A stretch of DNA of 64,000 bases from a virus, in IMG/VR virus record IMGVR_UViG_3300014913_000007, positions 64,001 through 128,000 of that record; one strand, written 5' to 3'. The number at the start of each line of letters is the position of its first letter. The first letter of the stretch is position 1. The notes beneath the pieces are model-generated. The model searched no databases, was not told the origin of the DNA, and worked only from the letters and a program-made list of their open reading frames with translations. This document shows, in pieces, positions 8,411 to 28,494 of this stretch. The position numbers and the translations under genes were made by a program.

Positions 8411-11026
8411 TTAATCACACTTACTATCTACTTGTCCTGTATCTAAATTTATAATCTTAACACATCCATCTTCCATACGTACTTCTATATTGTCTCCGTA
8501 CTTCTGCTTGTATTGTTCCTGTAAGTCCTCAATCTTTATATACTTTTTAAGTATTCTAGATAATCCAGAACCAAACTCAGTAATATTCTTTGAGGATTTT
8601 TTAAGCTGTTCACATACATATTCTAAAGGAGCACCATGTCTTAGTGACATTGATATCAGCCTAGTAGAAGCTTCGTAGTCTTTATTATCAAAATACTCTA
8701 TTATATCTATCTCCCTAAACTCTAGAGCCTCCTCATCCAGGAAGCATAAAAAGTATTTGCCCTTGTTTCTTCTCTCTACATAGCCTGAAAAATGTTTGTT
8801 AGGAATTTTATTATGATGTTCCCCAAAGAACACTTCATATACGGATCCATTGAGTAAACCTACCATAACTACGTAATCTTTACCCTTAATCTTTGTAAAA
8901 TGTACTTCACAGGGCAGTTTCTTAGGTCTTTTAGGTGCTTCAGCTCTTTCTATGCTCTTAAGTTCTTCTCTCTTCTCTACTGTATCTGTAACTAATACAC
9001 CAGATCTACATCCATCTCTATAAATTGTTACACCTTTCAGCCCCTTCTCCCAGGCATACATATACAGCTTCTTCACAGTCTCTACATTAGTTTCGGCTGG
9101 TAAGTTAATAGTTGAACTTAAGCTGTGATCTACATACTCTGTAAGCACTGCCTGGAAGTCTATTCTCTTCTTCCAATCTAGTTTATCAGATGTTATGAAG
9201 TAATCTGGTAGTAGTTTGTTTAATTCTACATCATTTTTTATATTCTTAGGTAGTTCTTTACCTACGGAATTGAAGTATCTCTCTATGTTCTTTTCAAATA
9301 CTGGAAAATCTGTGTATTTATCTCCACTTTGATCCACAAAGTCCACTCTAGCACCTGGCTCATTGTTATTAATCTTCCTTCTTCTAGTGTACATGTGTCT
9401 AAAAGTAGGCTCTATACCTGAGGAACACTCACCTAACATGGAAATTGTACCTGTAGGTGCATTGGTAAGGATAGAAATATTCCTCCTACCATATCTCTTC
9501 ATCTTCTCTAGTAAATCCTCTGGGAAGGTGTTAAAGAATTCACAATCCTTCTCTACCTCCCAGTCCCAAACTTTAAAAGATCCGTACATCTTAGCTAACT
9601 CTACTGACTCATCATATGCACAGTCTCTGTAACACTTCTTAATATTCTTTGCTAATTCAATTGACTTCTTGCTTCCGTACTTTATACACAGCTGTGAAAA
9701 CATATCTCCCCAACCGTGGTCTCCTAATCCTATTCGTCTACCTTCTTCTCCCTTTTTTAATACGTTGTTCCATAGATCTATTTCGAGTTGGTATTCTACT
9801 TTCTTGTCTTCATCTGCTTCTTTCTGTTCTTTCATAAGTTTGTCTAATATTCTCTGTATTTGTAAGTTTTCTGCACGTACCAGTGCTTCTCCCATTGCTA
9901 CTGTAATTCTTATAGCTTTTTCAAATTTATCGAAGTTAAATGAAGCTTCTTTAGTAAAGGGTTTATCTACAAAGTTAAGTAGTCTTATACTTATTAACCT
10001 ACATGCATCATAAGCTGACAAGCTTATTTCACTACATGGATTCGTGCTAACTACCTCATATCCTTCATAAAAGTGTGCAGGGAGGGTCTTGGTAATAGTA
10101 TCTCTATTTAATATTCCAGGCTCTGCCATCTCCCAAGCTGAGGTACATACAGTATCCCATAGCTCCTTAGCCCTTACCTTTTTAGAAAACGTAGGTTCAT
10201 TAGAATCTATTGGAAACCTCAACTCAAAATCAGTATCTTTCTTGACCGCAGTCATGAACTCGTCTGTTATCCATAAGGATATGTTGGCTCCAGTACAGTA
10301 TGTAAGGTCTTTCTTCATTGTTGCCCACTTCTCGGAATCTGGATGCTTTATGTTTAATGTGAGCATAGTTGCTGCCCTTCGTCCTCCTTGTCCAACATCC
10401 CTTCCAGTATTACTAAAGTGATTTGACCAACCTATGGCTCCAGTGGAGGTTCTAGCAGCGTTGTTCACTTCAGCACCTGAAGGTCTAAGGGTGGATAGGT
10501 CTACACCTGTTCCTCCTCTACGCTTGAAAATGTGTGCCATATTCTCACTAGTTCTCATTATTCCTGCCATAGTGTCAGATGGAGCTGGAACCACAAAGCA
10601 ATTAGATAAGCTCTGTAGTTTATTAAGATCCCCAGCTGCTGCTAGTACTGAACCTTGTGGACACACTTCTTCGAAATCATTGCAAGCATCAAAAAAGATT
10701 TCAAACCAGGTGTAAGTCTTATCTGATCTACTGGGATCATACTCCTCTTTGAACACTCTTTTTAACCATTCCTCAGGAGGACAGTTTAATTCTGCAGTAG
10801 GTTGACCTGCTTCATCAAAGAAAGCACCTATAGTTTTATCCTCAGGCATTGCATCTGCTAGCACTCTCATCACCCTTATTATTGTCTCTGCCGGTGATAG
10901 TTCCAATAGGTTACCATCCTTATCTCTCAACGCATATTTATTTAAGTAAGTTGTTGCTGCGAGTTCGTTACCGTTAAAGAACTTTATTGCATTTTTTAAA
11001 GCTATCTGTTCATTGGACTTAGACAT
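8411..11026 (-). CDS. nrdJ: class II (adenosylcobalamin-dependent) ribonucleotide reductase
   Basis: LSNCF, RRGGTG, TNPCSEI, NAPTGTIS, SSTINLP, KGVTIYRDG motifs; C-terminal Cys pair; no adjacent nrdB. Confidence 0.88.
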   Translation of the reverse strand: MSKSNEQIALKNAIKFFNGNELAATTYLNKYALRDKDGNLLELSPAETIIRVMRVLADAMPEDKTIGAFFDEAGQPTAELNCPPEEWLKRVFKEEYDPSRSDKTYTWFEIFFDACNDFEEVCPQGSVLAAAGDLNKLQSLSNCFVVPAPSDTMAGIMRTSENMAHIFKRRGGTGVDLSTLRPSGAEVNNAARTSTGAIGWSNHFSNTGRDVGQGGRRAATMLTLNIKHPDSEKWATMKKDLTYCTGANISLWITDEFMTAVKKDTDFELRFPIDSNEPTFSKKVRAKELWDTVCTSAWEMAEPGILNRDTITKTLPAHFYEGYEVVSTNPCSEISLSAYDACRLISIRLLNFVDKPFTKEASFNFDKFEKAIRITVAMGEALVRAENLQIQRILDKLMKEQKEADEDKKVEYQLEIDLWNNVLKKGEEGRRIGLGDHGWGDMFSQLCIKYGSKKSIELAKNIKKCYRDCAYDESVELAKMYGSFKVWDWEVEKDCEFFNTFPEDLLEKMKRYGRRNISILTNAPTGTISMLGECSSGIEPTFRHMYTRRRKINNNEPGARVDFVDQSGDKYTDFPVFEKNIERYFNSVGKELPKNIKNDVELNKLLPDYFITSDKLDWKKRIDFQAVLTEYVDHSLSSTINLPAETNVETVKKLYMYAWEKGLKGVTIYRDGCRSGVLVTDTVEKREELKSIERAEAPKRPKKLPCEVHFTKIKGKDYVVMVGLLNGSVYEVFFGEHHNKIPNKHFSGYVERRNKGKYFLCFLDEEALEFREIDIIEYFDNKDYEASTRLISMSLRHGAPLEYVCEQLKKSSKNITEFGSGLSRILKKYIKIEDLQEQYKQKYGDNIEVRMEDGCVKIINLDTGQVDSKCD

Positions 11027-11721: not shown

Positions 11722-11757
11722 ATGTTGCAGGTAATAAATATAGGGATACTCCTATAA
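11722..11757 (+). CDS. leaderless mini-ORF MLQVINIGILL overlapping a terminator
   Basis: ATG at the 5th nt after the -10 box; lies within hairpin 11727-11766. Confidence 0.45.
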   Translation: MLQVINIGILL

Positions 11758-11903: not shown

Positions 11904-11950
11904 TAAATTATTAATCAAACAATTTAGTTCGGGTAGAAGAAAGCAAATTT

Positions 11951-12025
11951 GGCGGGAAGGACGTTGGCTTCCAGTAGTGTCTCATAAGCATTATTACGCT
12001 GGTTCAATTCCAGCTTCCGCAACCA
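11951..12025 (+). tRNA. tRNA-Met(CAT), initiator-like 1:72 mismatch
   Basis: cloverleaf; loop CTCATAA; G1:A72; CCA encoded. Confidence 0.8.
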
Positions 12026-12044
12026 TTTTATTAACTTAAATTCC

Positions 12045-12103
12045 TAGGATTACCATTTTCAGTGATTAGCTTGCAACACTTTGATCTTTAAGTGGTAGTC
12101 CTA
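12045..12103 (+). other. 14-bp stem-loop between tRNA genes
   Basis: TAGGATTACCATTT pairs with AAGTGGTAGTCCTA. Confidence 0.65.
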
Positions 12104-12110
12104 CTTTTCT

Positions 12111-12724: not shown

Positions 12725-13174
12725 ATGGATACCAAGTACTGTGATAAATGTAAGAACGACCTGCCAGTTGATACTTTCCAAAGACGTGGGAAAAACGGAT
12801 TACAGCCTTGGTGTAAGAACTGTCAAAAAGAGTATGATAGACAACGTTACATAGATAATAAAGAATACATCTGTAAGCAAAATAAAGACGGTAGAGAGCG
12901 TAGAAGAGAAAGAAGTAGAAACGAAGTAACAAGCTATCTATTAGAGCATCCTTGTGTTGATTGCGGTGAGAAAGATATAATAGTACTCAGCTTTGATCAT
13001 GTTAGAGGAGAAAAGGAATTTAACATATCAGATGCGATTAAGGATGGTATGAAGTGGGAGAGGATAGCGAAAGAAATAAAGAAGTGTAAAGTTAGATGCT
13101 TCAACTGTCACATGAGAAAGACTGCAAAACAGCAGGGCTGGTTCAAATACAACAAATCAAATAAGAAAAAATAA
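12725..13174 (+). CDS. HNH endonuclease inserted in tRNA array 1
   Basis: CxxC pairs; CVDCG...FDHVRG...CFNCH; own promoter TTTACA-17-TATACT at 12689-12717. Confidence 0.85.
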   Translation: MDTKYCDKCKNDLPVDTFQRRGKNGLQPWCKNCQKEYDRQRYIDNKEYICKQNKDGRERRRERSRNEVTSYLLEHPCVDCGEKDIIVLSFDHVRGEKEFNISDAIKDGMKWERIAKEIKKCKVRCFNCHMRKTAKQQGWFKYNKSNKKK

Positions 13175-21353: not shown

Positions 21354-21382
21354 TTGACTTTTATCATTACCTGTACTATAGT
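21354..21382 (+). promoter_or_regulatory. sigma70-type promoter of tRNA array 2
   Basis: TTGACT-17 nt (ending TGTAC)-TATAGT. Confidence 0.82.
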
Positions 21383-21388
21383 GAGTAT

Positions 21389-21469
21389 ATGATTACAAGA
21401 ATGATTTCTTTATACACTTCTTTATGTACCTCTTATCTAGAGGAACTCGAATATCTATATCTAAAATAA
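21389..21469 (+). CDS. leaderless leader peptide of tRNA array 2, MITRMISLYTSLCTSYLEELEYLYLK
   Basis: ATG at predicted +1; residues 16-25 are all L/Y/E and one Cys is present; array encodes Leu x3, Cys, Tyr, Glu. Confidence 0.8.
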   Translation: MITRMISLYTSLCTSYLEELEYLYLK

Positions 21470-21480
21470 GGTAAACTTCA

Positions 21481-21549
21481 CATAAAACTAAACGCACTTC
21501 TGGCCCAGTTTTATGGGAAGGAGATAAGTGTATTTAGTTTTTGTTTTTT
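21481..21549 (+). terminator. candidate attenuator with alternative hairpins
   Basis: AAAACTAAA-C-GCACTT/AAGTGT-A-TTTAGTTTT with U-rich tail, competing with CATAAAACT/AGTTTTATG. Confidence 0.6.
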
Positions 21550-21553
21550 ATTA

Positions 21554-21640
21554 GCCCAGGTGGTGGAATTGGTAGACACGCTGAGTTTAAGCCTCAGTGT
21601 CAGCAATGACGTACAGGTTCGAGTCCTGCTCTGGGCACCA
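21554..21640 (+). tRNA. tRNA-Leu(TAA)
   Basis: loop TTTAAGC; long variable arm; CCA. Confidence 0.92.
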
Positions 21641-21641
21641 T

Positions 21642-21725
21642 ACTAGATTGGTGGAATTGGTAGACACATTAGGCTCAAACCCTGAGGCCAGAAATGGTGT
21701 ATAGGTTCGACTCCTATATCTAGTA
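21642..21725 (+). tRNA. tRNA-Leu(CAA)
   Basis: loop CTCAAAC; long variable arm. Confidence 0.88.
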
Positions 21726-21730
21726 CTTAT

Positions 21731-21814
21731 GCCGAGGTGGTGGAATTGGTAGACACGCTAGTCTTAGAAGCTAGTGCCCGAAAGGGCGTGAGGGTTCGAC
21801 CCCCTCCTTCGGCA
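21731..21814 (+). tRNA. tRNA-Leu(TAG)
   Basis: loop CTTAGAA; long variable arm. Confidence 0.92.
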
Positions 21815-21823
21815 CTTTTATAT

Positions 21824-21897
21824 GACTCCTTGGTCAAGTGGTAAGACGAGAGATTGCAAACCTCTAGTCCTGGGTTCAATCCCCAGAGGAGTTTCCA
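21824..21897 (+). tRNA. tRNA-Cys(GCA)
   Basis: loop TTGCAAA; U73; CCA. Confidence 0.88.
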
Positions 21898-21898
21898 C

Positions 21899-21986
21899 GG
21901 GAGAACGGTCACGATGGTGGAGTGGCACTGGTCTGTAAAACCAGCACAAAGAAACACAGGGGGTTCGAATCCCTCTTCTCCCACCA
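21899..21986 (+). tRNA. tRNA-Tyr(GTA)
   Basis: loop CTGTAAA; long variable arm; CCA. Confidence 0.9.
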
Positions 21987-21989
21987 CAT

Positions 21990-22060
21990 GTCTCCATCGT
22001 CTAACGGTAGGACATCTGACTTTCTATCAGATAATGTCGGTTCGATTCCGGCTGGAGATA
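21990..22060 (+). tRNA. tRNA-Glu(TTC)
   Basis: TCTGA-CTTTCTA-TCAGA; Glu-type D arm ATCGTCTAACGG. Confidence 0.88.
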
Positions 22061-22066
22061 CTTTTT

Positions 22067-23110
22067 TTAATCCTCTACTAGTACCTTAGATTGTATATAC
22101 TCTTTAACATACTTAAAAGGAATATCTAAGTCTTCGCTTATCTCCTCATAAGAAAGTCCTTCATCTATAAGCATAGTAGAAACTTCTGTTCCGTGTGCCT
22201 CCACTAAAGGTCTGAAGACTTGTTTAGCTTTTATTAACTCTTTCTTTGAGTTCCAATATCTAACAGACTTAAATAATTTCTTAGCTTTAGTATCTTCTGG
22301 AAAAATAGATGATTCAAGATCTACTTCTGGATATAGAATTTCTGCAAACTTAATCATGTCTACTGTCATAACTCTTACCCTACATACAGTAGATTGCTTC
22401 GTACTAGTATTTTCTAGGATGGTATTATATATTCCTAAATCCTTTAGTACTTCTGAAAACTGAGTGACAAATTTAATAGTAGGTCCACTCATGGATAGAA
22501 ATCCAGGTTCAGGTTCTGTTAAATTCTTACAGAAACCTCCATGTCTTTCAAAATACCCTCTCAAGTAATGTGGTAGTAGTTTCTTTGGCATTAAAGGTGG
22601 GAAGTCTAACATGTTTACATTTCTACTACCATAGTGCCACTTATTAAGTGCTTCTCTTATTCCTTGTTGGCTTATAGTAAGAAAAAATTTACCATATTCA
22701 CGTCCATTTACTGTTTGAGTACGGTAACTAAATTTATTATCTATCTTTAAACATTTTTTTAACTTTACTAAGTACTCTTTATCTTTTATAGAAGAAGTTA
22801 TTATCATACTTTCTGAAGTACTAGTCTTAAGGATCGATCCTGCCCAAGCTAGGTAACCTAATACGTAAGCTAAGTCCTTATTATCAATTTTCTTAAACTT
22901 ATCTAAGTCTATTTTCTTATACTTTCTTGTATTAATCATTCCAAGATCATAGCATTCCTTAAAGGATCTAAACTTCATATTATATTTTTCAAATAGCTTT
23001 TCTACTCTGTAAGTTGTAATAGAATATTTTTTTGCTATAGCTTTTTTACTTTTAAGCTCAATTAAGTAACTGGTCTCTAGTTGTTTTTTAGTTGGTAATT
23101 TAGTAAGCAT
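22067..23110 (-). CDS. LAGLIDADG-type endonuclease-like protein with terminal HTH domains (motifs degenerate)
   Basis: AYVLGYLAWAGS and HYLRGYFERHGG motifs lacking the usual DG. Confidence 0.72.
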   Translation of the reverse strand: MLTKLPTKKQLETSYLIELKSKKAIAKKYSITTYRVEKLFEKYNMKFRSFKECYDLGMINTRKYKKIDLDKFKKIDNKDLAYVLGYLAWAGSILKTSTSESMIITSSIKDKEYLVKLKKCLKIDNKFSYRTQTVNGREYGKFFLTISQQGIREALNKWHYGSRNVNMLDFPPLMPKKLLPHYLRGYFERHGGFCKNLTEPEPGFLSMSGPTIKFVTQFSEVLKDLGIYNTILENTSTKQSTVCRVRVMTVDMIKFAEILYPEVDLESSIFPEDTKAKKLFKSVRYWNSKKELIKAKQVFRPLVEAHGTEVSTMLIDEGLSYEEISEDLDIPFKYVKEYIQSKVLVED

Positions 23111-28359: not shown

Positions 28360-28446
28360 ATGTTAATATCAACTCTAAAACATATACTATTCGATATAAA
28401 GCGGTTCCATAACCGCCATAAAAGACGCTTTGCGTCTACAATATAA
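28360..28446 (+). CDS. leader peptide of tRNA array 4, MLISTLKHILFDIKRFHNRHKRRFASTI
   Basis: 13 of residues 7-23 are K/H/D/R/I and all four Ile codons are ATA; array encodes Asp, Arg x2, His, Lys and an Ile2-like tRNA. Confidence 0.8.
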   Translation: MLISTLKHILFDIKRFHNRHKRRFASTI

Positions 28447-28494
28447 TCAAACAAACAATTCAATTAGGGTAGAAGTAATTAAGTAAATAAATTT

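Follow-up and report, generated by a model that had tools for sequence, protein, structure and literature searches.

A leaderless, codon-matched short ORF and competing RNA hairpins ahead of a phage tRNA array: a candidate leader-peptide attenuator

The reasons for which phages carry tRNA genes, and the timing of their expression, are an open question, for which the current answers are compensation for codon usage and escape from tRNA-cleaving defences. The virus record IMGVR_UViG_3300014913_000007, a single contig of 153,389 bp with 34% G+C, carries a locus at which the question of timing can be put concretely. The window is the whole stretch of this record that was analysed (bases 64001-128000; 64,000 nt), and positions given below without another source refer to it. 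Nearly all long ORFs of the genome lie on the minus strand, and the 23 tRNA genes found by ARAGORN in the 153-kb genome lie on the plus strand throughout, grouped in four arrays. Array 2 (Table 1) ends with a T-run directly 3′ of tRNA-Glu. Its upstream neighbours, a gene for a 126-aa protein and an LpxR-like gene, and its downstream neighbour, a LAGLIDADG endonuclease gene, are all on the minus strand, and array 2 is therefore its own transcription unit. What, then, decides whether a polymerase that starts ahead of array 2 reaches its tRNA genes? The reading put forward here, to which we give about an even chance, is that the array 2 leader is a ribosome-mediated transcription attenuator gating the Leu, Cys, Tyr and Glu tRNA genes of the phage. 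It is the best explanation for array 2, and its main rival keeps the sensor and moves the output elsewhere.

Table 1. Sequence and RNA features of the array 2 locus, with positions in the window.
Feature	Position	Strand	Description	Basis
Promoter	21354-21382	+	Sigma-70-type; TTGACT 21354-21359, 17-nt spacer ending TGTAC, TATAGT 21377-21382	Sequence
Leader ORF (predicted leaderless)	21389-21469	+	26 codons, MITRMISLYTSLCTSYLEELEYLYLK; stop codon 21467-21469	Sequence, translation
ORF segment AUACACU	21412-21418	+	Can pair with terminator 3′ arm AGUGUAU (21527-21533)	Folding
Ten consecutive Tyr/Leu/Glu codons	21434-21463	+	TAT CTA GAG GAA CTC GAA TAT CTA TAT CTA	Translation
H2, alternative (putative antiterminator) hairpin	21476-21520	+	Clamp CUUC 21476-21479/GAAG 21517-21520 and 9-bp core CAUAAAACU/AGUUUUAUG	Folding
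T-full	21480-21544	+	Adds AAAACUAAA/UUUAGUUUU and ACA/UGU at the base of T-upper; -23.0 kcal/mol	Folding; MFE of post-ORF RNA
T-upper, putative upper terminator hairpin	21493-21532	+	Stems GCACU/AGUGU, UCU/GGA and CCCA/UGGG; -14.2 kcal/mol	Folding
GGGAAGGAG motif	21515-21523	+	Within the 3′ side of the hairpin	Pattern search
U-rich tail	21533-21549	+	UUUAGUUUUUGUUUUUU, 17 nt, ending 4 nt ahead of the first tRNA	Sequence
Array 2 tRNAs	21554-22061	+	Leu(taa), Leu(caa), Leu(tag), Cys(gca), Tyr(gta), Glu(ttc)	ARAGORN and Rfam

The promoter of array 2 belongs to a class with the layout TTGACN-N12-TGTAC-TATRRT, of which the 153-kb genome has exactly four copies, one ahead of each tRNA array, and which is retained in the relative L007 (49% identity to the present phage in DNA polymerase). 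Across the four array promoters, the distance from the -10 box to an ATG downstream of it is 5, 7, 7 and 10 nt. At array 2, the A of this ATG (21389) is the seventh base after TATAGT and coincides with the expected +1, as the original prediction had it. The leader mRNA is thereby predicted to be leaderless. No Shine-Dalgarno sequence precedes the ORF, so that its translation depends on a start site exactly at the ATG, which is itself a prediction. Array 1 shows a further feature at its predicted start site, namely a second mini-ORF with the start ATGTTGCAGGT (MLQV...; 11722-11757), which precedes the main 39-codon leader and whose first 11 bases are conserved in L007 (8551 onward).

The short ORF that lies between this promoter and the first tRNA is composed largely of the amino acids that the array serves. 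Leu, Cys, Tyr and Glu make up 14 of its 26 residues, compared with 21% across the phage proteome (p 3e-4); of the genome's 512 small ORFs, only 0.4% attain so high a fraction. The match also holds at the level of codons. When only codons readable by the array's encoded anticodons are counted as cognate (TTA, CTA, TAT/TAC, TGT and GAA/GAG, with CTC uncertain and TTG absent from the leader), they fill 13 of the last 20 positions (p 1.5e-5). Ten consecutive Tyr, Leu and Glu codons had been reported to end one codon before the stop; this is confirmed, the run being followed by AAA and then TAA. An uninterrupted run of at least 10 Leu, Cys, Tyr or Glu residues occurs once in six frames (306,774 residues), and that occurrence is the array 2 leader. 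The match between the leader ORF and the downstream tRNAs is far beyond chance. The three Ser codons that had also been remarked upon are present, all of them TCT, and ARAGORN calls no tRNA-Ser in the 153-kb genome. Beyond the TAA, another 56 codons of the leader frame are open (21470-21636), spanning the hairpin and the greater part of tRNA-Leu(taa); this is probably chance.

The correspondence extends to the other arrays and to other phages. The leader of array 1 draws 24 of 39 residues and that of array 4 draws 13 of 28 from their own tRNA sets, and the array 3 leader ends NGTGITSGTGTH ahead of Gly and Thr tRNAs. Pairings of each leader with the other arrays are all at or below expectation, and in 4/4 arrays the private promoter is followed by a matched ORF in the same position. 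In L007, matched leaders precede a Met/Trp/Ile/Val/Asn/Pro/Gln/Ala array and an Arg/Lys array; their amino-acid bias is kept and their peptide sequences are changed. Furthermore, a tRNA-Leu pattern retrieved three unrelated phage contigs (L001, L003 and L004) of the same design. In L004 and L003, tRNAs for Trp, Leu (four), Gln(ctg), Cys and Ser(gct) are preceded by a leader in which codons for Ser, Leu, Gln, Cys and Trp abound and whose synonymous choices fit the anticodons, and in L001 a Ser/Leu/His-rich leader stands ahead of five Leu tRNAs, His and Ser. All three contigs have a canonical terminator after the leader, with an antiterminator arm formed by the final codons of the leader ORF.

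In array 2, the RNA that separates the ORF from the tRNA genes is strongly structured. The whole 165-nt leader folds with -35.7 kcal/mol (z -3.07), a value reached in 0 of 200 shuffles, and the 89 nt 3′ of the ORF fold with -24.4 kcal/mol (z -3.35), which bears out the long hairpin with a U-rich tail that had been described there. Hairpin and tail occupy the 84-nt gap ahead of the first tRNA. In a crude scan of both genome strands (306 kb) for hairpins of -9 kcal/mol or better that reach a T-rich 12-mer, this feature ranks fourth by strength among 20. The hairpin is long and A/U-rich at its base, and interruptions divide it into stems of 4, 3 and 5 bp. With just 4 bp in its apical stem, it escapes a consensus terminator scan. 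An Rfam cmscan of 10000-31000 (E up to 1) returns tRNA-type matches only and none in 21389-21553, including to T-box models. The hairpin was also considered as a terminator for minus-strand transcripts, a role that was rejected with a tail of only about 8 T in 19 on that strand.

A second structure competes with this hairpin. The original prediction had placed a competing pairing at 21481-21515, and CATAAAACT (21481-21489) is indeed complementary to AGTTTTATG (21507-21515); the resulting 9-bp core is extended by the 4-bp clamp CUUC/GAAG to form the hairpin here called H2. The energy of H2 is -11.9 kcal/mol with the clamp and -7.0 kcal/mol for the core alone. H2 and the terminator hairpin share 21484-21489 and 21507-21520 and are therefore mutually exclusive, with reciprocal occupancies. 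The lower stem GCACU/AGUGU of the terminator sits in the loop of H2, where exclusion comes about through nesting only. Another pairing proposed earlier, between CTTATCT in the ORF (21432-21438) and AGATAAG (21522-21528), is correct as to complementarity but has a pairing probability of 0.00 in all folding states. The ORF segment that does pair with the 3′ arm of the terminator lies further upstream (Table 1).

The choice between these structures was modelled by sliding-footprint folding, in which 28-31 nt were forced single-stranded at successive transcript lengths. The read-out was the probability of the lower terminator stem in transcripts exposed as far as about 21532, the length at which the polymerase would occupy the U tract. 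With no ribosome, or with one stalled at any of the ten codons, the lower stem has a probability of 0.00-0.06 and H2 one of 0.64-0.99, and the segment 21412-21418, when uncovered, pairs with the 3′ arm at about 0.9 (0.93). A single ribosome at the stop codon abolishes the clamp, leaving H2 at 0.29-0.00, the apical stem at 0.70-0.99 and the lower stem at 0.14-0.19; in this state, 21412-21418 still competes for the 3′ arm. When the stop codon is occupied and the ORF is covered as well, the lower stem rises to 0.80. Once transcribed, H2 has a probability of 0.95-0.99 unless the stop codon holds a ribosome. The core of H2 begins 11 nt past the stop codon, and a terminating ribosome covers only the 4-bp clamp and not the 9-bp core. 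With the RNA emerged to 21541, T-full dominates in every state at equilibrium, so that the last U run would offer another opportunity for termination, one less open to switching. According to the same modelling, read-through transcripts will carry the full hairpin.

The claim that ribosome position sets the switch thus stands in part. Modelled occupancy does follow the ribosome, and a stall holds the lower stem near zero, but a single ribosome at the stop codon restores it only slightly and T-full prevails in all states at the later length, so that the constrained folding yields a partial switch. In addition, among upstream shuffles that keep T-upper, mean lower-stem occupancy is 0.5, and suppression like that of the native leader appears in 8-10%; as a control for the modelled switch this is suggestive rather than strong (p about 0.1). 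How much weight such modelling bears can be judged from the unrelated phages. The same procedure gives 0.41-0.44 for L004 when stalled or empty versus 0.91-0.94 with a ribosome at the stop codon, and 1.0 for L001 in all states. Equilibrium modelling is therefore a weak judge, by which array 2 does at least as well as the clear cases. As for kinetics, an apical stem that has nucleated should zip down faster than a pairing over a range of 110 nt can form.

The original prediction of a classical architecture holds only in part. The hairpin is interrupted and fails the consensus scan, and the antiterminator core follows the stop codon instead of lying over it. Moreover, the unoccupied leader favours read-through in the model, in which no superattenuated state is found.

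These elements can be assembled into a mechanism. Host polymerase would start at or adjacent to the ATG and produce a leaderless mRNA, of which a ribosome would read the 26-codon frame into its final part, the ten Tyr/Leu/Glu codons. Where the charged tRNAs are scarce, the ribosome would stall in the run and leave the RNA behind the stop codon free. H2 would then form once made, 21412-21418 would pair with the 3′ arm of the terminator, the stem beside the U tract would be blocked and the polymerase would continue into the six tRNA genes. Fast decoding would instead bring the ribosome to the stop codon, where it would cover the clamp of H2; the apical CCCA/UGGG could then nucleate, 21493-21532 could zip and transcription would end within the U tract, near 21539-21549. 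In this scheme, we infer that the ORF is translated, that termination takes place at the U tract and which way the response runs. In a more general form, array 2 would be a leaderless variant, with a working terminator and antiterminator, of a strategy by which phages gate tRNA operons through leader peptides written in cognate codons; this could equally well prove right or wrong. Under such gating, the phage would gauge decoding codon by codon and switch on replacement tRNAs only when the cell cannot decode. If that is true, the triggers might include cleavage of host tRNAs by defence nucleases or host shutdown.

The leaders of arrays 1, 3 and 4 bear on whether the output must be termination. 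In the genome scan for a hairpin with a T-rich 12-mer, none of the three has a terminator-like feature, and termination may therefore not be the output common to all arrays. A different element is shared. In the window, plus-strand copies of GGGWAGRAG occur only at 11931-11939, 21515-21523 and 28467-28475, that is, in the leaders of arrays 1, 2 and 4, where they lie 20-39 nt ahead of the first tRNA or tRNA-like sequence. The total number of matches is equalled by 0 of 100 shuffles, and the motif is kept in L007 (2866-2874 and 8762-8770) with differing flanks. It is preceded by a C/A-rich, G-poor tract that follows the stop codon of each leader, and in array 2 it belongs to both competing RNA structures. 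Its presence in arrays 1, 2 and 4 leaves room for a mechanism common to the arrays that is other than intrinsic termination. A GTG mini-ORF behind GGGAAGGAG (21528-21554) was tried as a further shared feature and rejected; at the corresponding distance, arrays 1 and 4 show no start codon.

It is possible, if rather doubtful, that the ORF is a real sensor of decoding speed whose output is not intrinsic termination. The hairpin would then be a pause, processing or stability element, such as an insulator against misfolding of the leader with the first tRNA, or an RNase site. An output shared by the four arrays might be linked to GGGWAGRAG and its C/A-rich, G-poor tract, through Rho loading, RNA decay or a protein factor. 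The matched leaders of arrays 1, 3 and 4 that lack a terminator-like feature speak for this alternative, as do the restriction of the motif to array leaders, its retention in L007 and the appearance of the full hairpin in every state once transcribed. What tells against it is the U-rich tail placed right after the hairpin and just ahead of the tRNA, a feature required for intrinsic termination but not at a processing site, together with the clear terminators that unrelated phages of the same design possess.

Two other features of the neighbouring leaders may be recorded here. In the array 4 leader, the distal codons form two small hairpins (28401-28438; 2799-2832 in L007). The first has changed in sequence yet still pairs, as GCGGTT/AACCGC here and GCGCC/GGCGC in L007, and the second, GACGC/GCGTC, is nearly identical in L007, where it overlaps the stop region. 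Between the array 1 leader and tRNA-Phe (11951-12105), there are two tRNA-like stretches that receive no ARAGORN or Rfam call and are possibly degenerate or unusual tRNAs. The first of them is 80% identical to the tRNA-Met of L007 and has a CAT anticodon-like loop.

For the array 2 leader itself, relatives are scarce. L007 and L095 have arrays resembling 1, 3 and 4 and none resembling array 2. No homologue of the leader was found in phage records, IMG/VR, a metagenome scan or the contigs of polymerase relatives, and blastn against phage records gave tRNA matches only. Searches of IMG/VR with the flanking proteins (LAGLIDADG, LpxR, a 323-aa protein and DNA polymerase) found nothing, and a polymerase-profile scan yielded one relative, which has no tRNA. 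Patterns built from the tRNA-Leu D-arm, tRNA-Glu and the promoter class retrieved unrelated phages, bacteria or random matches, and the sole homologue of the neighbouring 126-aa protein adjoins a protein gene. The tRNAs of the nearest relative are 74-80% identical, and DNA seeds therefore cannot reach family-level kin.

On another view, the ORF is untranslated or non-regulatory; its match to the tRNAs would have arisen by coincidence or as a side effect of composition, and the hairpin would be a structural spacer or a constitutive terminator that leaks. The missing Shine-Dalgarno sequence and leader homologue fit this view, as does a switch statistic of only about 0.1. It is nevertheless unlikely in the face of the matched ORFs, which are positioned alike after the shared private promoter in every array, a run of ten that is unique in six frames, an amino-acid bias that L007 preserves through changes of peptide sequence and the same pattern in unrelated phages. 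Still less credible is a functional small peptide whose composition reflects its own activity, since small hydrophobic peptides are indeed common in phages, but the four leaders differ distally, each following its own array, and L007 keeps composition and not sequence.

The attenuator reading has well-known counterparts in the enterobacterial amino-acid operons, whose leaders include trpL, hisL, leuL, pheL, thrL and the multivalent ilv leaders. Like these, array 2 has a short ORF close to its promoter in which putative regulatory codons form a run, a U-tailed hairpin before the first gene and a competing hairpin whose formation depends, in the modelling, on ribosome position. As in the ilv and thr leaders, several amino acids would be polled together. 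In contrast to the enterobacterial attenuators, the array 2 leader would control tRNAs and not biosynthetic enzymes, so that the sensor would report on the very class of product under control. It is also leaderless and without a 1:2 protector hairpin, as a result of which the untranslated leader favours read-through. Further differences are the interrupted terminator and the position of the antiterminator after the stop codon. Classical amino-acid leader-peptide attenuators (PMC1183508) and leaderless short ORFs of mycobacteria are the nearest known items.

Leaderless examples come from mycobacteria, in which polycysteine short ORFs are described as cysteine-responsive attenuators (bioRxiv 10.1101/834739). 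They share with array 2 the leaderless arrangement at the transcript 5′ end and an enrichment in the relevant codons, and are reported to control what lies downstream, as the array 2 leader would (bioRxiv 10.1101/834739). The mycobacterial ORFs control chromosomal protein genes of cysteine metabolism, whereas array 2 consists of phage tRNAs behind a terminator-like hairpin. The unrelated phages L001, L003 and L004 resemble array 2 in the order of a matched short ORF, a hairpin with a U-run and a tRNA array. They differ in having Shine-Dalgarno sequences, GC-rich canonical terminators and an antiterminator arm within the ORF, where array 2 is leaderless with a weaker, composite hairpin and an antiterminator beyond the stop codon. 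T-box riboswitches, which contain no ORF, recognize uncharged tRNA by direct binding and regulate aminoacyl-tRNA synthetase or amino-acid genes. The array 2 leader would resemble them as a cis leader that couples read-through to the state of specific tRNAs, and differs in its ORF, in the tRNA genes that it would control and in having no T-box match.

Full-text literature searches found no publication that describes tRNA genes, whether of phages or of bacteria, under the control of a leader peptide. Relative to the searchable literature, leader-peptide attenuation applied to phage tRNA genes would be new. If the proposal is true, a leader that polls the codons served by its own array would provide demand-driven tRNA expression with a built-in sensor of tRNA depletion. 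It would also take attenuation of the trp type, which has until now been linked with amino-acid biosynthesis, into the provision of the decoding apparatus itself. Of the arrays in this phage, only array 2 allows a transcriptional read-out to be predicted with single-nucleotide precision, as 3′ ends in the U tract.

Phage T5 was considered as a ready model and set aside, the small ORFs of its tRNA region being mostly not codon-matched. One T5 gene (L104, NC_005859), T5.072, encodes 91 aa containing WEGWEGEIEWLYFY (9618-9893, minus strand) and lies just upstream of promoter P14a and the tRNAs for Tyr, Glu, Trp and Phe. Genes of the homing-endonuclease type lie in or beside the tRNAs of T5, and likewise within or beside the arrays of the present phage. 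In array 1, an HNH-like ORF separates the Pro and Ala tRNAs (12725-13174), and the LAGLIDADG gene (22067-23110) adjoins tRNA-Glu of array 2. Finally, a T-run immediately after the acceptor stem of the last tRNA closes each array or sub-array (12669, 13519, 22062, 28644 and 29059), where the last tRNA of each may itself act as a terminator hairpin.
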